DNA from: an uncultured Planctomycetales bacterium
Lineage (GTDB): Bacteria > Omnitrophota > Gorgyraeia > Gygaellales > Profunditerraquicolaceae
Assembly: GCA_964427405.1 (NCBI GenBank)
Contig: CAYRUB010000001.1
Coordinates: 157,884-221,883, forward strand
Direction: 5' to 3'
Length of the DNA stretch: 64,000 nt
In this document: positions 5,156 to 15,998 of the stretch, piece after piece
Position numbering within the stretch: the stretch's first letter is position 1
Layout: every line of letters starts with the position of its first letter
The notes under the pieces: generated by a model
What the model was told of the DNA's origin: nothing
The model's input: only the letters and a program-made list of their open reading frames with translations
Databases searched by the model: none
Program-made: the position numbers and the translations under genes

Positions 5156-5962
5156 TTAGCTTCCGGCTGGTATTTGCAGGCGTCCTTTCTCTTCCGGGTA
5201 ATTCTTGACGTATTTTGCTATTTTTTCGCAGGAAGAACATATATCAGCTCCATTGCAGACTTCGCAAAAAGGAAGCACTCCCTGGATATTTAAGCCAGCA
5301 GTTTGCTTGCAGGTCTTACATTTGAAAGTTTCACACGCCTGACAAGCCAAATACGGCATACCCATGTGAGGACAATTTTCACAATCAGCTGTTTGGCAAA
5401 ATTCACAGGGATTTTCCTCATCTTCAAATTGTGAAGATGCCTCCGGCAATAGCTCTCTTGTTCTTTCGCTTATCTTTGAAAGATCAATCCCGGGCAGTTC
5501 AATTAATTGAAGCTGAATTTTTATATAGCCAAAACCATTACAGGGGAGTTTTATCCTTTTCGTGGCAATGCTGCCTTTTGCATTAGCGATGACGATGCTA
5601 TAAGTATAGAGATTTCTGGCATGGGCGTCGTCTTGCGATGAATGGAACGCCCCCATATCATGGTGCGAATGGATTATCCCGTCTCCTCCTAATTCCTCTT
5701 TGAATTCGCAGTCAACTGAACCTACTTCCTGCTTTGGGATCTTGAAGCTGGTTATGGTGTTATCTTTCACCCAGAATACCGCGCCCCACTCCTTATCCCC
5801 CATGCGCTGGCTGATATAAGTCCATTGACTCCAGATACTCCAGGGTATATTTAGGGTTTCTTTATGGTCATGGTCGCTGCAAAAGCCGCATTCACCGTAA
5901 TTCTTTATCTTTACATCTAAAATATTGCTTCTCTTTTCTGTAGCTTGCTCTAAAGTAAACAT
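5156..5962 (-). CDS. JAB/JAMM (MPN+) metallopeptidase with C-terminal multi-CxxC zinc ribbons
   Basis: HSHHDMGAFHSSQDD matches the JAMM motif HxHx7Sx2D exactly. The tail carries more than 6 CxxC pairs (CEFC, CENC, CQAC, CKTC, CEVC, CSSC). Confidence 0.8.
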   Translation of the reverse strand: MFTLEQATEKRSNILDVKIKNYGECGFCSDHDHKETLNIPWSIWSQWTYISQRMGDKEWGAVFWVKDNTITSFKIPKQEVGSVDCEFKEELGGDGIIHSHHDMGAFHSSQDDAHARNLYTYSIVIANAKGSIATKRIKLPCNGFGYIKIQLQLIELPGIDLSKISERTRELLPEASSQFEDEENPCEFCQTADCENCPHMGMPYLACQACETFKCKTCKQTAGLNIQGVLPFCEVCNGADICSSCEKIAKYVKNYPEEKGRLQIPAGS

Positions 5963-5963
5963 T

Positions 5964-6890
5964 TTATTTCCCTCCTTTCGCTTTTAGCCATTTTTTAAGG
6001 GCTTCCAACAGTTTTGAATCGGTGATTTCTCCTGTTTCAATCTCACAAATTATCCAGTCATATTCATTATTCTTTGCTTTTTCTTTTATATCTTTTATCT
6101 CATCATCGCTGTAATGTTCATCACAATCAGGGCAGTATCCGTAATCAGAGCCGTCAGGATCAATCCTTGAGCAGTCTTCACAGTAACCATAACTGTCAGG
6201 TATGTGTTCTTCGATGTTATCCAGGATGTTTCCTTCGCCTTCGTTTCTTGCGTCATCTAGGATTTTGGGGCAGATATGAGTTGAGTGCTGGATATGAAGT
6301 TTTCCCAGATCATCCATAAGGCAAAGTTCCTTGTATGCCCTTGAGGATATTCCTGCCGCAGCTGCAAGCACTGCCGGTATTACCCAGGAAGGCGTTACTG
6401 TATAACCCTGTTCTTCTTCTGCATCCTTCAAGGAAAGCGGGAATGTCTTTGAGACATTCAAGATTGTACCGTCATAGCCTATTCTCTGGTAGTTAAGATC
6501 ATTCTTCTTGCAGAAAGCACATATTATCTGCTGGCTTTTTAAATTATCCGTGCAGCAGAATATGTCGCCTCGCAAAATCTGGCAGTCTATTGGCTTTTCA
6601 ATACGTGAATCCTGAATCTCAATCCTTATTCCTTTTCTCACCTGGCAGATGAGTTCTTTCAAGGCTTCCGCTTTCTTTTTGCCGACAGCTTTTTCTTCTA
6701 AGAGAAGCCTGTTCAAGTTGGATACTTCAACTATGTCAGAATCAATTAAAATCAACTCTTCTACTCCTGACATAGCAAGAAGAAGCGCAGTCCAGAAGCC
6801 TGTCCCGCCACAACCGACAATTGAGGCGATTTGCGGAATATTTAAACCTTCTACTAAGTTCTGTCTTTCGTAAATAGCAAGTTCTGGCAT
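5964..6890 (-). CDS. ThiF/MoeB-type E1-like adenylyltransferase
   Basis: IVGCGGTGFWTALLLAMSGVEELILIDSDIVEVSNLNRL is the Rossmann/adenylation motif. C-terminal CEDC...CPDC zinc site. No rhodanese domain. Confidence 0.85.
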   Translation of the reverse strand: MPELAIYERQNLVEGLNIPQIASIVGCGGTGFWTALLLAMSGVEELILIDSDIVEVSNLNRLLLEEKAVGKKKAEALKELICQVRKGIRIEIQDSRIEKPIDCQILRGDIFCCTDNLKSQQIICAFCKKNDLNYQRIGYDGTILNVSKTFPLSLKDAEEEQGYTVTPSWVIPAVLAAAAGISSRAYKELCLMDDLGKLHIQHSTHICPKILDDARNEGEGNILDNIEEHIPDSYGYCEDCSRIDPDGSDYGYCPDCDEHYSDDEIKDIKEKAKNNEYDWIICEIETGEITDSKLLEALKKWLKAKGGK

Positions 6891-6902
6891 ATTTCTTCTC
6901 TC

Positions 6903-7499
6903 CTATATGATTGACTCAATTAAACCCTCATCGCTTAATTCTTTGAATTTGCACAACACATCTTTGTCTTTATTTGACAAAATGTTCCAAAGAGTTGAGT
7001 ATGTCTTAGGCAGGATCACAGTACCCAAAGATTCAAGGTTTATAACCCGGAACGACTTGATTATTTTTAGACAGGCTTCCTTTAAAAGCCCTAAGGATTC
7101 AGGATTAAGGTATTGGATTTCACCGGTGCAGATGGTGTGCCCCTTATCGGTCAATCCAAGATAGTGAAAACCTATCTCCGGTTCTGATACAAAAGCTATA
7201 AAGCAGCCTCTCTGGTCATAGATGCCGTAAATCTTAAAGGGATAGTATTTGATAGGCGTCTTTAGAAAATAGGTTTTATCCTTATAATAAAGCTTGTCTA
7301 TAAGCAGGAGGCCAGAATAGCCCTCTATAAGCATATCGTCTTCCTTTATCATGCAGCTATAGCCTCCGGTAAAGGGAACCGTAAAGATGCCTTCCTTCAG
7401 GCCTTGGACAAATTCCCGCCAAGAGGTATCAATTTTTTCGATAAGGGTTGATTTCTTTTTAGCTTTAACGATCAATTCTGTATCCATCATTGCTTTCAA
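6903..7499 (-). CDS. putative E2-like (UBC-fold) protein
   Basis: 198 aa between the Ubl and E1 genes. HYLGLTDKGHTICTGE resembles the E2 H-x-N...G-x-I-C active-site region. AAAGGAG RBS. The assignment rests on motif and position only. Confidence 0.35.
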   Translation of the reverse strand: MKAMMDTELIVKAKKKSTLIEKIDTSWREFVQGLKEGIFTVPFTGGYSCMIKEDDMLIEGYSGLLLIDKLYYKDKTYFLKTPIKYYPFKIYGIYDQRGCFIAFVSEPEIGFHYLGLTDKGHTICTGEIQYLNPESLGLLKEACLKIIKSFRVINLESLGTVILPKTYSTLWNILSNKDKDVLCKFKELSDEGLIESII

Positions 7500-7560
7500 G
7501 CTCCTTTAAGCTTTAAGAGAGGGAGAAAAAGTTTCTCTCCCTCTCTTTTTAGCTTTTTTT

Positions 7561-7797
7561 CTAGCCGCCTGCTTTGACGTATCTTTCCACTTCGATATCG
7601 TGGCCGTCAAAGGTCGCAGGCAGGTTGTCGGTAGAGGTAACCTCTTCGCCGTCTACCAAGATGGTAAAGGAGTCAATGCCTTTTTCCTGCAAGAGGCGGG
7701 TTAAGGTGTCCTTTACGGCATCGCCCTTTTTTACCTCGAGCTCTTCTCCTGCTATTGTTATCTTTGTCTTTTCGTTTTTCAGTTCGTTTAAGTTCAT
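7561..7797 (-). CDS. ThiS/MoaD-like ubiquitin-like beta-grasp protein ending in Gly-Gly
   Basis: 78 aa. ...ILVDGEEV...FDGHDIEVERYVKAGG* has the typical ThiS/Ubl core and a C-terminal diglycine immediately before the stop. Confidence 0.7.
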   Translation of the reverse strand: MNLNELKNEKTKITIAGEELEVKKGDAVKDTLTRLLQEKGIDSFTILVDGEEVTSTDNLPATFDGHDIEVERYVKAGG

Positions 7798-7855: not shown

Positions 7856-8158
7856 TTAAGCCTGGTAGGCTGCAAGAACCACTTCTTGCAATTCATTTTT
7901 TGCCTCAGGCGTTAAGAATTGGACGGTATCGTAATACTTACCGTCGCCAGCTAAATGGGATGGCATAGCTGCGAACAGCCCGCCCTCTTTTTTAGCCATG
8001 ACCCTGATGCCTTTGATTAAAACCGCGTCAGCGACTTTAATGTCAACAAAGGCCTTCAGGGAGCTTTCGTCTTTTTCGACTTTATAAACTCTGGCCACTT
8101 CAATCATGGTTTTCACCTCCTTTCGATTTGTTTTTTGTTTTGTTTTTACTTGGCTCAT
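7856..8158 (-). CDS. SpoVG-like protein, first gene behind leader copy 2 (starts MSQVK)
   Basis: IRVMAKKEGGLFAAMPSHLAGDGKYYDTVQF resembles the SpoVG core (IRVIDG..GLFVAMPS..DG..RDI..P). The N-terminal 17 aa are an extension that begins with the leader-encoded MSQVK. Confidence 0.55.
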   Translation of the reverse strand: MSQVKTKQKTNRKEVKTMIEVARVYKVEKDESSLKAFVDIKVADAVLIKGIRVMAKKEGGLFAAMPSHLAGDGKYYDTVQFLTPEAKNELQEVVLAAYQA

Positions 8159-8525
8159 GTAAGCCTCCTTTCTTTTGACGCCGGAAATTAAAACCCAAGA
8201 ATATGAAGTATTTTTCCAGGCAGCCCAGAAAAATACGGTCTTTTGTCAAGAAAACATGGAATGCCCGAAGGCAAACGACGCAAGGAGTGAACCTTCCTGG
8301 GAGTCCTTTGGAAAAATTGAGACTCCCCTATAGGGGCAGAATGCTTCTGATAGCTAAAAAGCCTTTCCGAGGCAGACCACGAAAAGGCTTTTTAGATAGA
8401 GATGAATCTTCCCAAAGGATTTTCTTGAAAAAAGTCAGGATTGGGTTATTGTAGGCGGATAAAAAGAAAGGAGGATTACGTGACGACAAGAGAAAACAAA
8501 AGACAAGGAAGGAAGTAACTGATTG
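8159..8525 (-). promoter_or_regulatory. structured ~370-nt leader element, copy 2 (novel)
   Basis: Hairpins at 8208-8236 (GTATTTTTC/GAAAAATAC) and 8356-8393 (AAAAAGCCTTT/AAAGGCTTTTT) carry the conserved TGGNNTGCCT loops. The 5' segment 8462-8474 AAAAAGAAAGGAGG region is complementary to the RBS region 8164-8182. A CCCC-TATA-GGGG hairpin plus T-run lies mid-element. Confidence 0.5.
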
Positions 8526-8712
8526 AAGTAGCGATTAAGGGTAGCTAAAAGATAAAACGGACTGTGAAATTTTTCTTAGCTGAATTAGAAGACCGAAAAA
8601 TATATATATTCTGGGTAGCTGAAATTGAAAGGAAGACATCACCTTGAAAGTTGAAACGATTGAAGAGTTTGTTAAAGCACCAAAGGTAAGACCTGCCGAC
8701 TTACGGATCTAC

Positions 8713-9366
8713 TTATCCTTGAAATTGACTCTGCTTGTACTCAGACTGGAAATATATTAATGGGACTATCCGCATAGCTTCAAGGATCTTTGGTCCGTGG
8801 CATTTTTTAAGCCTTTTTCCCGAATTGCATGGGCATATCTTATCTCGACTATATTCTCCAGAGGCTAATATTTTAAGAAATTTCTGAGCAGCAGTAAAAT
8901 CATTGGTATTAAAGAACTCACAATAAAATTCTATAACCCCTCGTCCATAATGTGAGCGCTCACCAAACGGCATATGGCCTGTTTTTTTATTGAAACAAAA
9001 GGAGAAAAGAAACGGAATCACTAAAAACTCAACAAATCCAATAAGGGTTTTACATTTACTGAATTTTATCCAATTATCTACTGGCGTGCCTAAACATAAT
9101 GTATCGTTTGTGTAATGATGAAAATCGCTCGGTATCCTTCCCCCCATTTCTTTAACTGAGGGCATCAGATCTGGGTAGCTAGACGGGATCGCGATGAATA
9201 ACTCAAAACCATCTTGGATTCTTACTTTTTCGAATTCGGAAGAAAAACCCAGGAAACCAAAAATATAATAATTATCATCGATATGCTTAAGGCTCAAACC
9301 TGTATATTTCTCATGAAGTTCTTGAAATTGTTTCTGAATAATATCGTCATAACCAATACTCGCCAT
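8713..9366 (-). CDS. E2-like protein with C-terminal SEC-C zinc motif (CBASS Cap2-short-like)
   Basis: Start at MASIGYDD (9366), overlapping the CD-NTase stop by about 20 nt. FHHYTNDTLCLG resembles the UBC HPN...C active site. The C-terminal CPCNSGKRLKKCHG is a SEC-C motif. Confidence 0.45.
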   Translation of the reverse strand: MASIGYDDIIQKQFQELHEKYTGLSLKHIDDNYYIFGFLGFSSEFEKVRIQDGFELFIAIPSSYPDLMPSVKEMGGRIPSDFHHYTNDTLCLGTPVDNWIKFSKCKTLIGFVEFLVIPFLFSFCFNKKTGHMPFGERSHYGRGVIEFYCEFFNTNDFTAAQKFLKILASGEYSRDKICPCNSGKRLKKCHGPKILEAMRIVPLIYFQSEYKQSQFQG

Positions 9367-10546
9367 TGCTGCTCCATGGTTTCGAAGGACTAATTTTAAC
9401 CTCAGGGTAAGATTGCGCAGAAGGCGTTTTCTGGTTACTAGTTCTATAGCCACATTTCTCGAGGACCTTCCCCATGGTTTTAATACCGAATATAACACCC
9501 AGGTACTCAATCATATCCTTAGTTGATGTTTTTGTTAGAGCCTCCTGCAAGTCTTTTTTAATCTTTTTCAACCAATCATAAAAGCTTTTCTCAAGCACAG
9601 GATCATCTAACCATTTATCTGCAAAGTTTTCATCTGGTTCAACAGGATTTCTTATAACTGTTTTAGTCCCATTTTTTTCGATATGTTTATCCATATTATC
9701 TACTATACGTATTAATGCATCAGCTAACCCTAATTCATTTTGATACGCGTGCGCCGCCAAGGTGGTTATAATCATCGAAGTCGGCTTGATCTTAAAATCT
9801 TTTTCGAACATAATATCACGGTGCCGCTTAAGAAGCTGAATAGTTTTCTGTAAGGGAGTTCTAACTTTGTAAACAGGAACGGCTTCTATTGAAGCATATA
9901 AGCGCTTTTCAAGAAGAGATATAGCCCCTTTCTCAAAAATGGTTCTCATTCTAAACTTGAACCATTCTGCATACCCCTTAGGATTAGTTTTTAACCAATT
10001 ATCGTCAATACGATCATAATTACCCAATGTATTATCGGTAAGACAAATACTTGTCTGCAGTAAATTCTCCCTTATTCCTGATTCAAGCAAATGTTTTTTG
10101 TAGGGCACATCTTGCTCTGGAATAGAAGCTAAAAAATCCATATGGAAATGAACATCATCTTCATATTCAATTCTCCAGCAACGTCTTTTATTCTCGGGCT
10201 TACTCTTCATATTTTTAGCAAGAGAGTAATCAGTTAACTCCTTACCGATTTTTTCCTTTAAGTCTTTTTGTGAAATCTCATTTTTAAGATAATTTAAACA
10301 ACATACCAAGTCAATATCATATCTGTCTTCTTCTGATGCAGGTCTAACTGTAGTTCCCAAAAGAAATGAACCTTGCGTATATATTTCAGGATTTCGATCT
10401 TTTAATGATGTACTCTCCTGTAACCACTTTGTTACCGATTCATATCGAAGTCTCGCTTCTTCAAATTGAGAATCGGAAATCTTTAAGGAATCCGCATATT
10501 TCTCTAATACATCATCCAATAATGTCATGCGATTATCTTGCATCAT
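9347..10546 (-). CDS. cGAS/DncV-like nucleotidyltransferase (CD-NTase) of a CBASS system
   Basis: QGSFLLGTTVRPASEEDRYDIDLV gives the GS...hDhD nucleotidyltransferase active site. A third acidic residue lies at HMDF. 399 aa. Confidence 0.8.
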   Translation of the reverse strand: MMQDNRMTLLDDVLEKYADSLKISDSQFEEARLRYESVTKWLQESTSLKDRNPEIYTQGSFLLGTTVRPASEEDRYDIDLVCCLNYLKNEISQKDLKEKIGKELTDYSLAKNMKSKPENKRRCWRIEYEDDVHFHMDFLASIPEQDVPYKKHLLESGIRENLLQTSICLTDNTLGNYDRIDDNWLKTNPKGYAEWFKFRMRTIFEKGAISLLEKRLYASIEAVPVYKVRTPLQKTIQLLKRHRDIMFEKDFKIKPTSMIITTLAAHAYQNELGLADALIRIVDNMDKHIEKNGTKTVIRNPVEPDENFADKWLDDPVLEKSFYDWLKKIKKDLQEALTKTSTKDMIEYLGVIFGIKTMGKVLEKCGYRTSNQKTPSAQSYPEVKISPSKPWSSNGEYWL

Positions 10547-10547
10547 T

Positions 10548-11483
10548 CTAACCTCCTGTGTTATAATCCAAGAATTCTTGGATTTTTTGTGAATTATTTG
10601 TAAAATCTTTTTCTGCTAAAAAGACTAAGTTATTGTACTCATTAGGATCATCTAACTTTAAAGGTTTAGCTGATTTAAAATTAATTCTTAATACCTGATT
10701 TTCCTCAAATAAAAGCTTAAGCATGTTGGTAGTTGTTTGAGACTGCAAGCTAAGAAGCATACCAATAAATTTTTGTCGACCCCACCTTGCCAAGAATCCC
10801 CATCCTAAGAACTTTTTCCACCATCGGTCTGACTGCGAATAGAAATTTTCCCCTTCGCCTGTGCCAATTGACAAAATCATTAGATTATTTATATTCTGAC
10901 CAAGACGACGCTTAGCTTCAATAGCCGCAATAAGAGCCGGATTATTTGCCCATAATCCTCCATCTGCTAAAAGAAAATTATCCATATAATAAGGATCAAA
11001 ATAGGTAGGGGCGGAACAAGAAGCCAATACTGCTTTATAGACTAGTCTATTAGGATCACGAGAAAAATTTTTATCGTACGAAGATTTAAACACATGAACG
11101 CAGCCATTCCCGATATCAGATGCAGGCAAAACTAAAGGTATGTCAATTTGGCCTAGCTTTCGATCATCACCATAGAGATTTCTTAAGATGTTTTCTAAAT
11201 CCTTATTATCATATCTGCTCACGAATAATCCAAACCAATGAAGAAATCGCTTCTTGAAGATCCGTTGACCATATTCCTTATAAAAATCTAATACTTTACT
11301 CGCAGTAAAGTTACAAGCTAATGATGCCGCGATGATTGCTCCTGTACTAGTTCCGGCTATTAGATTAAAACTTTTTAACCAATCAACACTATATTCTTCC
11401 TCAATGCGTTTTAATATATAAGCTGCATAAACACCACGATAACCACCACCGTCGATTGCTAAAATTTTAAATATTTTATCCAT
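10548..11483 (-). CDS. patatin-like phospholipase (CapV-type CBASS effector)
   Basis: DGGGYRG oxyanion motif, GTSTG nucleophile elbow and DGG catalytic Asp. Sits directly upstream of, and 2 nt from, the CD-NTase. Confidence 0.85.
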   Translation of the reverse strand: MDKIFKILAIDGGGYRGVYAAYILKRIEEEYSVDWLKSFNLIAGTSTGAIIAASLACNFTASKVLDFYKEYGQRIFKKRFLHWFGLFVSRYDNKDLENILRNLYGDDRKLGQIDIPLVLPASDIGNGCVHVFKSSYDKNFSRDPNRLVYKAVLASCSAPTYFDPYYMDNFLLADGGLWANNPALIAAIEAKRRLGQNINNLMILSIGTGEGENFYSQSDRWWKKFLGWGFLARWGRQKFIGMLLSLQSQTTTNMLKLLFEENQVLRINFKSAKPLKLDDPNEYNNLVFLAEKDFTNNSQKIQEFLDYNTGG

Positions 11484-11558
11484 AGATAGTCTTTATTAAT
11501 TTTTTAATTGTTTCTTCTGTCCTCTTCAGGTGTCTTTTCGGTATCACCAATAGGTTGT

Positions 11559-12551
11559 TTATTCGTACCTTATTTCTGTCCCCCGCAAGGTACCGTCCGT
11601 TGTTATAATAATATGATCATCTCCTGAGGTTTTTTCAGAAGATTTATTTTGGTCGTCTCTGTCTGTCCTATAAATATTTACACCCCTGCTTTCATATCTC
11701 TTGATTACAGTTTTGTCAGGAAGCAATGTTCCTGAGAATTTCTTATTGCCGGCACATATTATTCCATACCTAGGTGAAACAGCATCAATAAAAGCATTCG
11801 TGCTTGCACTTTCACTTCCGTAATGACCTGCCTTGAGAAATGTGCTTTTTAATTTGCCATCATATTCTTCAACCATTTCCTTCTCTACGAATTTTAGGAC
11901 ATTGGGGGAATCTTTCCTTAGCTTACCTTCAGAATCACCAACAAGCAAAAAGCTTACCTCGCCATATCTAAGCCATATCACTATTGATGAATTATTGGGC
12001 TTATCTGCATGCCCATCTGAATGTAATACCCTAACTTCAAATTCAGAACCCCAGTTAAGACTATCCCCTTCTTTCTTTATTAAGGTACCCACTAATGGCT
12101 TGTAGTAGTGACAATCTTTCTCTTGCTGAGCTAACTTACAAAAAGTCTTTTTGTATAATCTTGATTTTCCATTATAACCGGGATCAAGAATTGCCTTTAT
12201 TTGATACGCTTGAATAACAGGTATTAACCCTCCAACATGATCGGCATCACAATGAGTCATAATCATCAAATCTATAGGCTTGTTTTTCTTTATCCCATGA
12301 CTTTCAAGATAAGGGATAATTACTCTTTTGCCCTCTATTCCTTCGCCTCCGTCTATTAGGATTATCTCACCTTCATATTTCCCATTGCCTTTTATGCCGT
12401 CATCGGGAGTTTGAATCAAAATACAGTCACCATGGCCTACGTCTATAAACGTTACCTTAAGGGGAGTCTGGGCGTAGAGGAAAGAAGAACATAGCAGCGT
12501 GAAATAAAAAACAAAAATCTTAATTTTATGCTTTTTTATAAATATAACCAT
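11559..12551 (-). CDS. secreted metallo-beta-lactamase-fold hydrolase (ComEC C-terminal-domain-like)
   Basis: Signal peptide, DVGHGDCILI and MTHCDADHVGG MBL motifs. Confidence 0.65.
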   Translation of the reverse strand: MVIFIKKHKIKIFVFYFTLLCSSFLYAQTPLKVTFIDVGHGDCILIQTPDDGIKGNGKYEGEIILIDGGEGIEGKRVIIPYLESHGIKKNKPIDLMIMTHCDADHVGGLIPVIQAYQIKAILDPGYNGKSRLYKKTFCKLAQQEKDCHYYKPLVGTLIKKEGDSLNWGSEFEVRVLHSDGHADKPNNSSIVIWLRYGEVSFLLVGDSEGKLRKDSPNVLKFVEKEMVEEYDGKLKSTFLKAGHYGSESASTNAFIDAVSPRYGIICAGNKKFSGTLLPDKTVIKRYESRGVNIYRTDRDDQNKSSEKTSGDDHIIITTDGTLRGTEIRYE

Positions 12552-13377
12552 AGTTACATTTTGGCTTTTCTAATGGAAAACCCATTAATATGCTCACAAT
12601 CTTGAGTATCGTTCTAGGATCAAGCGTTATGCCGTCCTTTCCTGTGTGTGTAGCTCCCCCTATCTCAAGGATTTCCACCTTGCTTTTATAAAGATCAGAG
12701 TCTAAGTCTTTTTTGCTTAGTCTTGCGCTCTTCATAACCGCCTGATCCACCGTACCCATGAAACAATAAAGCTCTTTAACTCTATCCAAGAGTTTCTTTC
12801 TTATTTCAGGCTGATTTGCATACTTAATAGGCATCTGGTCAGGATCCAGGTTCACGCATTGCATTGCATGATGCGGCGAATAATCTTTGAATATAGGACC
12901 TATTTCTCCTAGCTCGCTGCCTTGATGCGGTGTTGCGACAGTAATCAAGCTGTTGATTTTCAAAAGAGGAGGAGTATCATCAATTATGGCCGCAACAGAA
13001 TCTAAACCGCCCATGCTGTGCCCTATCAAATCAAACTCCTTGCTCTTTCCTATCTTAGAGAAGATTTTACTTCGAAGAACAGGTCCGAAATCAAGGAAAC
13101 TCTTGCACCCCCCAGATTCCTCTTCAGAGAAAGTTATGTATTCGGCAGAATCGCAGTTTGTGAATATCTCTGAAAACCTTTCTTTTGCAGAAATCCCCAA
13201 TTTCTTGTCAGTGGTAGTCCACCAAGTGTTATTCTCATCAGTCCAGCCCGGTACAAAGAAAACGGGTCTTTTCAAAGTTAATTTTTCCTGCGTAAACTGC
13301 GTCAGTCTATTTAAAGCGTTCTGTTTTTGCTTTTTTCTTTCTTCTATCATTTCTTGTACTGGACCTGTGGTAGACAT
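12526..13377 (-). CDS. alpha/beta-hydrolase lipase/esterase
   Basis: VFFVPGW...GHSMGG nucleophile elbow. 283 aa. Confidence 0.6.
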   Translation of the reverse strand: MSTTGPVQEMIEERKKQKQNALNRLTQFTQEKLTLKRPVFFVPGWTDENNTWWTTTDKKLGISAKERFSEIFTNCDSAEYITFSEEESGGCKSFLDFGPVLRSKIFSKIGKSKEFDLIGHSMGGLDSVAAIIDDTPPLLKINSLITVATPHQGSELGEIGPIFKDYSPHHAMQCVNLDPDQMPIKYANQPEIRKKLLDRVKELYCFMGTVDQAVMKSARLSKKDLDSDLYKSKVEILEIGGATHTGKDGITLDPRTILKIVSILMGFPLEKPKCNYGYIYKKA

Positions 13378-13434
13378 GGAAACTCCTTTCTTTTGTTATG
13401 AAAACAACTGTTCTCAAAACAAATTGTTAAAGCT

Positions 13435-13677
13435 TTAATGCTTTTTATCTCTTGGTGGACAAGAATCGTTACCTGGAGGAACCGTATCGCTGTCTCGAAT
13501 CGGCCCCTTTGGGCTATGTATTTTTACTTCACCTCCACCACTGTTCGCCGACATCTTTTTCGCTGCTTTCTCAGCCTCTGCCTGCGTATCATAATAACCG
13601 GCAACACGATCGGACTTTTCTCGCTTTGCACGCCAGTCACCAGAATCCTTGTCTTTTGAAACGTGATAATTTGCCAT
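13435..13677 (-). CDS. DUF2188-like small protein
   Basis: MANYHVSKDKDSGDWRAKREKSDRVAGYYDTQAEAEKAAKKM has the DUF2188 pattern. Confidence 0.45.
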   Translation of the reverse strand: MANYHVSKDKDSGDWRAKREKSDRVAGYYDTQAEAEKAAKKMSANSGGGEVKIHSPKGPIRDSDTVPPGNDSCPPRDKKH

Positions 13678-13681
13678 TTAT

Positions 13682-14317
13682 TTACTCCTTCCTTAAATTA
13701 GGTATAGTTGCTATAACAACACCTTGAATCTGAAAATCATCAGTTAAAATAATTGGTTTGTTTTTTTTATTGGAAGATTTTGGCTTTAAAATAATCATAT
13801 TGGGAGCGAGGTGAAACTCTTTAATTGTCGCCTCGCCATCAATTAATGCAACAACTTTATCTCCTTCATTAGCTGTTGGCTGCTGTCTAACTAACACAAG
13901 ATCGCCTTCATTAATTCCTGCTTTATCCATCGAATCTCCTCGCGCATGCAATAGATAATATTTTGCCCCTGGCTTTGCGAGAGAAGTAGAAACAGAAATA
14001 AACCCTTCTATATTTTCTTCTGCCAACATTGGTGCCCCACAAGCTACAACGCCAACCAAAGGAATATTAATGGTTTGAGCATGCATAGAACCAAGATCTG
14101 GATTCAAAACGAGGTGATAATCTCCGTCTTCAAGCTTTTTTATCACACCTTTTTCTTGAAGTTGCTCAAGAATAACCTGAATTGACCGGGGTGATTTGTA
14201 ACCAAGATCAACCATCAATTCCCTAATAGAAGGAGCTCGAGAACGATGCATAAGCCAATTTCTAATATGACGGATAGCCTCGATTTGCCTTTTTGTAAAC
14301 GTATTTTCGTTCTTCAT
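13682..14317 (-). CDS. lexA: LexA repressor (S24 self-cleaving peptidase)
   Basis: N-terminal wHTH, VVACG cleavage-site-like motif, ARGDSM and GDLVLV...K catalytic Ser/Lys motifs. Confidence 0.85.
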   Translation of the reverse strand: MKNENTFTKRQIEAIRHIRNWLMHRSRAPSIRELMVDLGYKSPRSIQVILEQLQEKGVIKKLEDGDYHLVLNPDLGSMHAQTINIPLVGVVACGAPMLAEENIEGFISVSTSLAKPGAKYYLLHARGDSMDKAGINEGDLVLVRQQPTANEGDKVVALIDGEATIKEFHLAPNMIILKPKSSNKKNKPIILTDDFQIQGVVIATIPNLRKE

Positions 14318-14353
14318 ACATACAAGTGTATACTACCGTATGTATTTTGTCAA
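14316..14353 (-). promoter_or_regulatory. lexA promoter with overlapping inverted repeat (candidate SOS operator), leaderless start
   Basis: Minus strand TTGACA(14353-14348)-17 nt-TACACT(14330-14325), then ATG 7 nt later. ATACATAC-N14-GTATGTAT inverted repeat (14316-14345) overlaps the -10 and the start codon. Confidence 0.4.
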
Positions 14354-14667
14354 GTAAAACAAACACCCAACAGAAGCAATATCGTTTGAATTATATTTGA
14401 TAGAATTATTTAGTTTAATAAAATTCGCTTCTAGTAATGCAGACTTGGGGATAGGCGTAAATAACTATACTCTCAGTTCGCAGAAGATAAAGTCTATACT
14501 AAGCCTTACTCTTAAGACTGCTACAAACCGAACAATGATTTTGTAACCTTGCTACTTCTTCATTATAAGCTTTTCTAAATTCAGGATTCTTTAAAGACTC
14601 TTCATCGATATGCTGGCTTACTGTTTTGGGAATCATTCTTTTTCTTTTTTTAGATTGTGGTTGCATC

Positions 14668-15408
14668 TTATCCAGCAAGATTACGTTCAATCTCTGCTAT
14701 TAGTATCTTTGGAAACCCCTTTATAATCATATGCTGATTGACAGGAAGAAAGGTTTTAAGCTCTTGTCTGAAATCAATCCTCCCGGATTTGACAACCTTT
14801 AGAATCTTTGCCTTTAATTGTTTATCCTGTATAAATACTTCCTTAAAGGCCATGCGGCTACGAAGAATAAAATAAAGATCGTAGAAATCCCGCGCCTTTT
14901 GGCGCGTAAGACAGGCTTGGATTTTTTCGGTAATAAGAATCTCTTCTTTAAGATGAATAAGCGTATAGGACACAACAAGGTCGGATTGGATGAGTGCCGC
15001 TGCCCCTAACCCCTTTTTACCAGGCCGTAAAGAAACCTCTACTTGAATCCGGCTTTTATACTCACTAGTATTAAACTGGAATATAGCGAGGTATCCGCCG
15101 GATGTACTTTTTGACTCAATAATCTCAGTTTGGATACCTTCCATTTCTATCTTAGTAAGGGCTCCTTCCATTAGGGTTTCGATACCTTTGATCGTAATAT
15201 TTACTCCGGTAAAATCTAAATCTTCCGAGAACCGCGGACTCTGCCAAATGATCCGCAATGCAGTGCCTCCCTTAAAAAGCAGACTATCGGAACCCTTTTC
15301 CTGATAAAGCCGAGAAAGAAACAGCTGCTGAAAATATTCCCGCACGACATTATCTATTGTCGTCTGCCATGTTTGAGCTAACTTTTGAACTTGTCTTTTT
15401 TCAATCAT
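14668..15408 (-). CDS. AbiEii/AbiGii-family nucleotidyltransferase toxin (type IV TA), possibly C-terminally truncated
   Basis: LFKGGTALRIIW...SEDLDF motifs. At 246 aa it is short for the family. Confidence 0.7.
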   Translation of the reverse strand: MIEKRQVQKLAQTWQTTIDNVVREYFQQLFLSRLYQEKGSDSLLFKGGTALRIIWQSPRFSEDLDFTGVNITIKGIETLMEGALTKIEMEGIQTEIIESKSTSGGYLAIFQFNTSEYKSRIQVEVSLRPGKKGLGAAALIQSDLVVSYTLIHLKEEILITEKIQACLTRQKARDFYDLYFILRSRMAFKEVFIQDKQLKAKILKVVKSGRIDFRQELKTFLPVNQHMIIKGFPKILIAEIERNLAG

Positions 15409-15998
15409 AAGATATCCTTAACCAGTTTTATCAAGCCCTTTTTGCCAAAAAGTTTTGCATATTCTATTACAGATTTTTTCTTTATGTCGCGGACATTAAG
15501 ACGCTCATTAAGAGTTTTTCGATTAAGACTAACAAAATAAAGGTAATCTGCGAGGGCCTTTTCCGGTTCGGCCATAAGAACAGTCATATCCCCTATCTTC
15601 TCTGTTCTATAGCCGCGATAAGCTGGTTTTTTAATGTGTGAATAAGTAAAAGACTTATTATTAACAACAAATTCCCGGGTAATCCGGGTTGTCACTGATG
15701 TTATTGTGTAAGCGAATTCAGGAATAATGCCATAATGGGAGAGGGCGTATTCAAAAGAGATGTAACTAGGCGCATAAAGCCTATTGGCAATAGCTTCATC
15801 TCTTGGCTGGTCAATTCTTAACGCATAAAGCCCATTTCTTACTTTAAGAAAAAGGTCATCGCAGTGATCCTTAATAAACTCCTGCGTCGCACGCAAAGAG
15901 ACACCAAAAACTCTCTGGAAGTCCGATGGAGAAAACAAACGGACTCCTTTCGCCTGAAGATGCTGCTGGACATATATTGGTTTAAGTTTTCGCTCCAT
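15405..15998 (-). CDS. AbiEi-family antitoxin/transcriptional regulator
   Basis: 197 aa, 4-nt overlap with the toxin gene. N-terminal wHTH-like region typical of AbiEi partners. Confidence 0.65.
   Translation of the reverse strand: MERKLKPIYVQQHLQAKGVRLFSPSDFQRVFGVSLRATQEFIKDHCDDLFLKVRNGLYALRIDQPRDEAIANRLYAPSYISFEYALSHYGIIPEFAYTITSVTTRITREFVVNNKSFTYSHIKKPAYRGYRTEKIGDMTVLMAEPEKALADYLYFVSLNRKTLNERLNVRDIKKKSVIEYAKLFGKKGLIKLVKDIL

Follow-up and report, generated by a model that had tools for sequence, protein, structure and literature searches.

The locus was confirmed as a type II-short (E2-only) CBASS, and it probably constitutes a complete, apparently functional abortive-infection module that works by a route like that of the Serratia marcescens E2, SmE2. 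Three tightly packed genes on the minus strand of the window (the whole stretch of DNA analyzed, 64,000 nucleotides) encoded a patatin, a CD-NTase and an E2-like protein, with all catalytic motifs intact (Table 1). The three open reading frames were found at the positions and on the strand reported by the first-pass annotation; the patatin stop codon and the CD-NTase start were 1 nt apart, and the end of the CD-NTase gene shared 20 nt with the E2 gene in the region of the E2 start codon (positions 9347-9366). All three proteins matched CBASS models with HMM E-values far outside the range of chance. Neither an E1 domain nor a JAB (Cap3) gene was present within the operon, and the E2 had no ThiF match in Pfam or PADLOC. 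Many unrelated lineages had the same order of patatin, CD-NTase and long E2, and in them the cyclase gene overlapped or directly adjoined that of the E2. The initial proposal that the locus is a CBASS operon in which a CapV-like patatin and a CD-NTase are joined by an E2-only accessory gene was upheld by the CBASS models and by the UBC fold of the third protein; with that fold present, the alternative of a type I operon whose third gene encodes an unrelated SecA-like adaptor was discarded. The locus adds one more case, on a mobile element, to a catalogued CBASS type, and the operon would be recognized by the defence-system HMMs now in use. Upstream genes for an MBL-fold protein and an alpha/beta-hydrolase, considered as operon members, were rejected because they were missing from all related CBASS loci.

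Table 1. Features of the CBASS operon (positions in the window; supporting evidence where reported).
Feature	Positions	Strand	Evidence
Patatin effector, CapV-type phospholipase, 311 aa	10548-11483	-	Pfam Patatin, PADLOC, NCBIfam CBASS_lipase
Patatin GGGYRG	11433-11450	-	
Patatin GTSTG, nucleophile Ser46	11340-11354	-	
Patatin DGG	10956-10964	-	
CD-NTase, clade-G-like, 399 aa	9347-10546	-	PADLOC cyclase, Pfam DncV-like_NTFase and SMODS
CD-NTase QGS	10367-10375	-	
CD-NTase DID	10310-10318	-	
CD-NTase D137	10136-10138	-	
KPW motif, CD-NTase residues 389-391	9374-9382	-	Comparison of cyclase/long-E2 pairs
Variable post-KPW tail SSNGEYWL and stop	9347-9373	-	ORF coordinates
Long-form CBASS E2, 217 aa: UBC-fold core and C-terminal helical extension with SEC-C	8713-9366	-	
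E2 H83...C91 motif	9094-9120	-	
E2 H139	8950-8952	-	
SEC-C zinc knuckle CPCNSGKRLKKCH, E2 residues 178-190	8797-8835	-	Pfam SEC-C, SecA peptide alignment

The motifs first read from the letters alone were all located: GGGxRG (as GGGYRG, residues 12-17), GTSTG (residues 44-48) and DGG (residues 174-176) in the patatin, GS...DID (QGS, residues 58-60; DID, residues 77-79) in the CD-NTase, and the UBC-like HHYTNDTLC (residues 83-91) in the 217-aa protein. The patatin matched Pfam Patatin (1.9e-27), the PADLOC CBASS phospholipase effector (2.2e-90) and NCBIfam CBASS_lipase (234 bits; equivalog cut-off 200 bits). Its gene occupied the place of a CBASS effector immediately upstream of the cyclase, and its activation by the signal is predicted.

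The CD-NTase combined the GS motif with the [DE]x[DE]...D triad (D77, D79 and D137), and the top Foldseek matches of its fold were all CD-NTases. It matched a PADLOC cyclase model (8.6e-129) and, above cut-offs, Pfam DncV-like_NTFase and SMODS (PF21654, PF18144). Type II-short, or E2-CBASS, cyclases are predominantly of clade G. The closest PDB sequences were VcCdnG (9WOO; about 50% identical over residues 11-344, 4.3e-78), SmCdnG (2.5e-24) and BdCdnG (3.7e-16), and in the structural ranking CdnG stood above CdnB, CdnD, DncV and CdnC, with the SmCdnG core as the best match (Foldseek 3.6e-17). By both measures the cyclase was closest to CdnG and is clade-G-like. A disordered activation loop that senses phage proteases has been reported for clade G (PMC12991175); residues 144-183, where such a loop was sought, were predicted as ordered with high confidence, which neither supports nor excludes a loop.

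Translation of the E2 was assigned to the ATG at position 9366, within a longer TTG open reading frame (8713-9510); a GGAG stood 6 nt upstream of this ATG, and the closest homologues started at the same residue. The protein had a UBC fold with an active-site Cys, and H83, C91 and H139 were invariant in 69 diverse long-E2 members. Its full length, both UBC core and SEC-C, was covered by PADLOC E2 models (E=5e-83). The SEC-C stretch (CPCNSGKRLKKCH) had the C-x-C-x8-C-H pattern of a zinc knuckle, matched Pfam SEC-C PF02810 (3.7e-5, 23.9 bits; gathering cut-off 20.4), as the first-pass annotation had recognized, and aligned to the SecA C-terminal zinc peptides 1ozb, 1tm6 and 1sx0. The zinc ligands C178, C180, C189 and H190 were likewise invariant in the 69 members, and the knuckle was modelled as packed into the E2 domain (pLDDT about 96), pointing to a structural role. 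As an addition to a UBC fold, the motif is no evidence of a SecA-like function.

The same annotation had regarded the SEC-C tail as unusual for the type II-short class, and this was not borne out. Six PADLOC E2 models of 216-241 positions (PDLC00871, 872, 865, 870, 859, 861) spanned the protein through the SEC-C, and the C-x-C...C-H ligands were kept in 151 of 159 checked members of the family. The PADLOC CBASS E2 models fell into two disjoint E2 families, one of which is marked by the SEC-C tail; the same long-E2 models also matched the E2 adjoining another KPW-tailed cyclase. A profile search gave 2,413 cluster representatives of the long family, and an 11-sequence alignment was the query of the metagenome scan. 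Nothing structural set the present E2 apart from the PADLOC long-form family, which is defined bioinformatically only: the literature searched held no characterized member of the long SEC-C branch, and searches linking SEC-C with CBASS E2 returned nothing relevant. RefSeq labels on plasmid homologues were "hypothetical" or "SEC-C metal-binding domain-containing protein". The locus is of value as a clean, intact example of a branch that is very large by the profile search and to the members of which standard pipelines give such labels.

The C-terminus of the CD-NTase (...KPWSSNGEYWL) had been thought to conflict with Cap2 chemistry, as it ends in neither Gly nor Ala. A non-Gly end was no problem in itself in E2-CBASS because the characterized SmE2 trims its cyclase; the observation nonetheless led to a real difference, in that cyclases partnered with a long E2 keep [KR]PW and not Gly. 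Of 36 distinct cyclase/long-E2 pairs, 35 had the motif [KRQS][PQ][WY] at a distance of 1-8 residues from the end of the cyclase, and it read KPW in 28. Its third position was W in 34 of the 35 motif-bearing pairs and Y in one. The residue that followed was G in 9, S in 7, R in 6, A in 4, K in 4, T in 2, C in 2 and Q in 1, that is, small (G, S, A, T or C) in 24/35 and R, K or Q in 11/35. The tail beyond the motif was 1-8 residues long (35 pairs), and only 16 of all 36 tails had any Gly. [KR]PW was thus the sole conserved tail feature of cyclases paired with a long SEC-C-type E2. The present cyclase has Gly395 four residues before its end, where close homologues have Asp (...PWSSND...). The 20-nt overlap with the E2 gene was also present at three other loci (L002, L003, L019), and the post-KPW tail is for the most part encoded by this overlap.

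Tail type varied together with E2 type. Tails with KPW paired with long SEC-C E2 (35/36 distinct pairs and additional look-ups), and tails of the form ...HTFYG-x paired with short SmE2-like E2, as at locus L047, the E2 of which matched SmE2 (5.4e-24), and in SmCdnG itself. A natural 616-aa cyclase::E2 fusion had its domain junction immediately after ..QPW.

The nearest characterized system was the Serratia marcescens E2-CBASS SmCdnG-SmE2 (PDB 8HSB, 8YJY, 9KKB; Yan et al., bioRxiv 10.1101/2022.05.25.493364; Xiao et al., PMC12948482). Like it, the present operon is an E2-only type II system with a clade-G cyclase, without E1 or JAB, the cyclase of which has extra residues past the recognition motif. 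E2-CBASS functions without E1, SmCdnG binds SmE2 through a helix and a three-stranded sheet, and its attachment residue is a Gly described as the sole conserved residue of the tail (PMC12948482). SmE2 itself has cysteine protease activity, by which the cyclase is trimmed after this conserved Gly (bioRxiv 10.1101/2022.05.25.493364; PMC12948482). The SmCdnG tail ends in ...Y-G406-E and carries the conserved Gly with the helix and sheet, whereas the present tail (...KPW-SSNGEYWL) had neither a conserved Gly at or near the C-terminus nor such a motif predicted. SmE2 has 162 aa and no zinc knuckle, compared with 217 aa and SEC-C in the present protein. The Serratia effector is 2TM-SAVED, that of the present operon a patatin.

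The two E2 families were distant in sequence. SmE2 belongs to Pfam PF26395 and PADLOC models 858, 862-864, 866, 873, 876 and 877, and no PADLOC E2 model was hit in common with the present E2. A phmmer search of the PDB with the latter did not find SmE2 even at E<1, and no PF26395 hit was among the precomputed hits for it or its homologues, although the short E2 of L047 has one. With hhalign the similarity between the families was marginal (E 0.042), and H83 and C91 fell on the ...PH...C motif of an SmE2-family protein, equivalent to SmE2 H87 and C101, the roles of which have been described (bioRxiv 10.1101/2022.05.25.493364). From spacing and flanking Gly residues, H139 was tentatively equated with SmE2 H152. 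An AF2 model of the concatenated cyclase and E2 (block alignment) folded both domains well (pTM 0.66); in this model the tail was undocked (residues 388-401, pLDDT <50), the residue facing Cys91 was not indicated and the SmCdnG-type helix and three-stranded sheet did not form.

The module is probably borne as cargo by a conjugative element in an Omnitrophota-like bacterium. In the preferred SmE2-like route, upon phage infection the clade-G-like CD-NTase would make a cyclic dinucleotide, most likely a cGAMP isomer because the characterized CdnG enzymes VcCdnG and SmCdnG make 3'2'-cGAMP (PMC12804361; bioRxiv 10.1101/2022.05.25.493364). This signal would activate the CapV-type patatin phospholipase, and the membrane would be degraded and the cell killed before the phage matures. 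Through translational coupling with the cyclase gene, the third gene would supply the UBC-fold E2 with its His83/Cys91/His139 active site and putatively structural SEC-C knuckle. By analogy with Serratia SmE2, the E2 would bind the C-terminal tail of the cyclase, remove the residues beyond KPW and keep the cyclase attached to itself by a thioester or isopeptide bond. Such cyclase-E2 adducts may prime or activate the cyclase, as SmE2 does by building cyclase chains.

A possible though less probable reading of the same operon is that the chemistry of the long E2 differs from that of SmE2, with attachment through the carboxyl of the KPW Trp, or with the E2 as a tail-trimming protease that forms no stable conjugate. 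The Trp was the only near-invariant tail residue (34/35 motif-bearing pairs), the next residue varied freely, as for a P1' position, with an overlap-derived tail beyond it, the natural fusion was joined right after QPW, and no conserved Lys able to play the role of SmE2 K159 as an acceptor was found in the 69 diverse long-E2 members. To our knowledge, all known Ubl/E2 chemistry, including that of SmE2, depends on Gly or accepts Ala, which argues against attachment at Trp; so do the small residues after Trp in 24/35 tails, which would allow attachment at +1 for most, and the lack of structural docking in the AF2 model. In SmCdnG, moreover, G406V and G406L abolish the linkage (bioRxiv 10.1101/2022.05.25.493364). 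It is tentatively suggested that the long branch may recognize a C-terminal Lys-Pro-Trp and process or conjugate the cyclase at a non-Gly residue, most plausibly through the Trp carboxyl. E2-CBASS has a single mechanistic model, derived from the short SmE2 family and based on the conserved cyclase Gly, in place of which the long branch has KPW. If the Trp-carboxyl reading were true, the long E2 would carry out ubiquitin-like transfer with no C-terminal Gly, a residue otherwise universal in this chemistry.

It is unlikely that the long E2 serves as a regulator or sensor without covalent attachment, sitting on the KPW tail and holding the cyclase inactive or active, with SEC-C recruiting a partner (ribosome, nucleic acid or phage protein) and the Cys acting elsewhere or not catalytically on the cyclase. 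In SecA, the SEC-C motif acts as an interaction module, and the alignment of the knuckle to the SecA zinc peptide, its invariant ligands and the absence of the Gly expected for conjugation are consistent with such a role. Against it, the invariant H83/C91/H139 resembles the protease/ligase center of SmE2, the confident packing of the knuckle into the domain points to a structural part, and the cyclase::E2 fusion is easier to reconcile with a substrate processed in cis than with an adaptor.

It is highly improbable that the CBASS E2 and the neighboring Ubl, E1 and JAB genes (5156-7797) form a split version of a full type II (Cap2/Cap3-like) system, and these genes were rejected as Cap2/Cap3 surrogates. 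On the same strand, about 0.9-3.5 kb downstream, there were indeed genes for a ThiF-type E1 (Pfam 2.3e-23), for a JAB peptidase (1.2e-6) and for a protein of 78 aa with Gly-Gly at its end. None of the four neighboring genes, however, adjoined CBASS in the related loci examined; between the cassette and the CBASS stood a SpoVG gene and 555 bp of spacer; the cassette has its own Ubl; its JAB weakly matched protein A of the PRTRC system, which is a mobile-element cassette; and E2-CBASS needs no E1 (PMC12948482).

The operon also differed from the other characterized CBASS. Type II systems with Cap2 (E1-E2 fusion) and Cap3 (JAB), such as Enterobacter cloacae Cap2-CdnD (PDB 7TO3), have the E1 domain and JAB absent here; Cap2 acts on a terminal Gly or Ala by adenylation and conjugation, and the present cyclase has neither at its end and carries KPW. 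Type I DncV-CapV of Vibrio cholerae and VcCdnG-Cap5 (PDB 9WOO; PMC12804361) are two-gene systems with no E2, unlike the present operon. DncV belongs to clade A and ranked well below CdnG as a structural match to the cyclase, and the partner of VcCdnG is the Cap5 nuclease, compared with a lipase here; the present patatin passed the equivalog cut-off of the NCBIfam model "CBASS cGAMP-activated phospholipase".

The three co-directional genes at 8713-11483, all on the minus strand, form a real, intact E2-only CBASS of a type already catalogued. The first-pass annotation was right in this main call, given the CBASS model matches of all three proteins and the UBC fold of the third, and its three-gene description, including the 217-aa size, was borne out in every detail (table). 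The patatin matched Pfam Patatin (1.9e-27) and the PADLOC CBASS phospholipase effector (2.2e-90), and scored 234 bits against NCBIfam 'CBASS cGAMP-activated phospholipase', above the equivalog cut-off (200 bits). The cyclase, separated from the patatin stop by 1 nt, matched the PADLOC cyclase model (8.6e-129) and overlapped the E2 gene by 20 nt. The ATG at 9366 was the best start for the third gene, because GGAG lies 6 nt 5' of it and the closest homologues share this first residue.

Features of the CBASS operon and its surroundings (window positions)
Feature	Position	Strand	Remarks
Conjugative-transfer genes	17532-41158	-	TraH, TraU, TraC/VirB4-like ATPase, TrbI, TraD/TraG-type coupling protein, TraG_N
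Cargo/defence island upstream of CBASS	11559-15998	-	MBL-fold, PGAP1-like alpha/beta hydrolase, DUF2188 protein, LexA/S24-type repressor, AbiEii toxin with upstream AbiEi-like gene
Patatin, 311 aa	10548-11483	-	GGGYRG 12-17, GTSTG 44-48, DGG 174-176
CD-NTase, 399 aa	9347-10546	-	QGS 58-60, D77/D79, D137
E2-like protein, 217 aa	from ATG at 9366	-	third gene of operon
Spacer 3' of E2 gene, 555 bp	8159-8712		apparently non-coding
Terminator-like hairpin	8208-8236	-	
SpoVG-family gene	7856-8158	-	Pfam 1.2e-17; between CBASS and Ubl/E1/JAB cassette
78-aa protein ending ...KAGG	7561-7797	-	Ubl/E1/JAB cassette
198-aa protein	6903-7499	-	Ubl/E1/JAB cassette; no family match
ThiF-type E1 with Cys-rich tail	5964-6890	-	Ubl/E1/JAB cassette
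JAB/JAMM peptidase, HSHH...S..D	5156-5962	-	Ubl/E1/JAB cassette; weak NCBIfam PRTRC_A match

The 217-aa protein is an E2. Its whole length matched the PADLOC CBASS E2 model PDLC00871 (5e-83), and the UBC fold, whose absence had been named as grounds for reclassifying the operon, was present. The AF2 model (31 input sequences; mean pLDDT 93.9, pTM 0.88) had a UBC-like topology of helix, four strands, active-site loop and further helices, and all of its top 50 Foldseek hits in PDB were E2, UFC1 or UEV proteins. The family profile also matched human UBE2W (3.3e-5), where His83 and Cys91 fell on the HPN...Cys motif of E2s.

The SEC-C tail, first regarded as unusual for E2-only CBASS, proved to be regular. 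A profile run against 1.84 billion cluster representatives returned 2,413 relatives (E<=1e-3; 476 of them <1e-30). In almost all of the top 150 the match extended through the SEC-C region, and C-x-C...C-[HC] was kept in 151 of 159 family members checked. Across 69 diverse members the sole invariant positions were G37, P65, H83, C91, H139 and the zinc ligands C178, C180, C189 and H190. PADLOC 'E2' models fell into two disjoint sets: long ones (859, 861, 865, 870, 871, 872; 216-241 positions), matching this E2 and that of locus L048, and short ones (858, 862-864, 866, 873, 876, 877; 82-158 positions), matching the 142-aa E2 of locus L047, which carries Pfam PF26395 'E2-CBASS' and matched Serratia SmE2 (5.4e-24). 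SmE2 was not found by phmmer of the 217-aa E2 against PDB, even at E<1. By sequence the two families are barely alignable (hhalign E 0.042), their His...Cys motifs nonetheless being in register, and the zinc knuckle is therefore a mark of the long-form branch of CBASS E2s. RefSeq gives plasmid members of this branch the labels 'hypothetical' or 'SEC-C metal-binding domain-containing protein', and no paper discussing the branch was found in the literature searched. Because the AF2 model packs the knuckle tightly (pLDDT about 96), its role would most simply be structural; a role in interactions is possible.

The closest sequence relatives of the cyclase were VcCdnG (4.3e-78), then SmCdnG and BdCdnG, and structural ranking placed CdnG above CdnB, CdnD, DncV and CdnC. 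Characterised CdnG enzymes produce 3'2'-cGAMP (PMC12804361). Other clade-G cyclases are reported to have a disordered, protease-sensing activation loop in the region equivalent to residues 144-183 (PMC12991175); here these residues (10016-10114) were predicted to be ordered, with helices and a strand (pLDDT above 93).

The cyclase end, ...GEYWL, had been noted as lacking a terminal Gly or Ala. This is no obstacle per se in E2-only CBASS, as SmE2 has cysteine protease activity of its own (C101 and H87) and removes residues after SmCdnG Gly406, even fused MBP. SmE2 next forms a thioester, as well as an isopeptide to K159, and assembles activating cyclase chains (Yan et al., bioRxiv 10.1101/2022.05.25.493364). 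The observation nevertheless reflects a real, family-wide difference. According to Xiao et al. (PMC12948482), E2-CBASS cyclases conserve no tail residue other than the terminal Gly; judged from the sequences compared, this statement fails for the long-E2 branch, which has KPW instead. Among 36 distinct cyclase/E2 pairs (17 genome loci, 28 metagenome loci and look-ups), 35 had [KRQS][PQ][WY] 1-8 residues from the cyclase end (KPW 28, RPW 3), in most cases after a short hydrophobic strand and P-x, and only 16 of the 36 cyclases had any Gly in the tail. In these 35 pairs, the residue after Trp was G (9), S (7), R (6), A (4), K (4), T (2), C (2) or Q (1). Close homologues of this cyclase end in ...PWSSNDSCWL, and have Asp at its Gly395 position. 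In this operon the post-KPW residues fall largely within the 20 nt shared with the beginning of the E2 gene, which explains their variability; loci L002, L003 and L019 have the same overlap. Cyclases ending in ...HTFYG-x, about 47% identical to this one, adjoin short SmE2-like E2, and KPW-type cyclases adjoin long E2; tail type therefore co-varies with E2 type. The representative search also returned a natural single-chain CD-NTase::long-E2 fusion (P0154, 616 aa), joined directly after the cyclase '..QPW', a ready-made substrate for the question of cis-cleavage; its N-terminal E2 helix starts about 7 residues past '..QPW'.

The best-supported reading of the operon is a standard abortive-infection CBASS. 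The clade-G-like cyclase would make a cGAMP-type signal that switches on the CapV-type lipase, and the E2 would regulate the cyclase via its C-terminal tail. From the SmE2 precedent we infer a protease/ligase centre made up of His83, Cys91 and His139, which would shorten the tail and bind the cyclase covalently. Four points limit this reading. The Gly is missing from long-E2 partner cyclases, and no acceptor Lys was conserved among the 69 diverse long-E2 members. In an AF2 model of the concatenated cyclase and E2 (pTM 0.66), the tail was not docked (residues 388-401, pLDDT below 50), and the helix plus three-stranded sheet of SmCdnG was not predicted. The long E2 may cut and link the cyclase at the Trp, may do so at a tolerant +1 position, or may regulate the cyclase without stable conjugation. 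The locus itself is of modest note, and would be of more only if non-Gly chemistry in the long-E2 branch were true.

The closest relatives of the E2 (76% identity) and of the cyclase (78%) came from Candidatus Omnitrophota MAGs. GC content dips across the operon (8500-12000; 0.34-0.37 vs 0.42-0.48 in the flanks), which would fit a horizontal gain of the CBASS module on its own. The operon shares a cargo island with an MBL-fold protein, alpha/beta hydrolase, LexA-like repressor and AbiEii pair; elsewhere these genes (11559-15998) were not conserved with CBASS, except for sporadic LexA-like and DUF2188 neighbours. The MBL-fold protein has a signal-peptide-like N-terminus and weak PADLOC matches (LmuA, RTasMBL, PDC-M48B). 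Just downstream, the four-gene ubiquitin-like conjugation cassette (5156-7797, minus strand) resembles the PRTRC/Bil-like modules of mobile elements. The MBL, hydrolase and Ubl/E1/JAB genes were considered as parts of the CBASS and rejected; they were beside CBASS in none of the related loci examined, and are therefore independent neighbours. The cargo island adjoins conjugation genes, all ORFs longer than 150 aa within the first 62 kb are on the minus strand, and the window resembles a conjugative element of the integrative or plasmid kind. Interspersed among the conjugation genes are those for a type II secretion/type IV pilus-like E ATPase, F platform and secretin.
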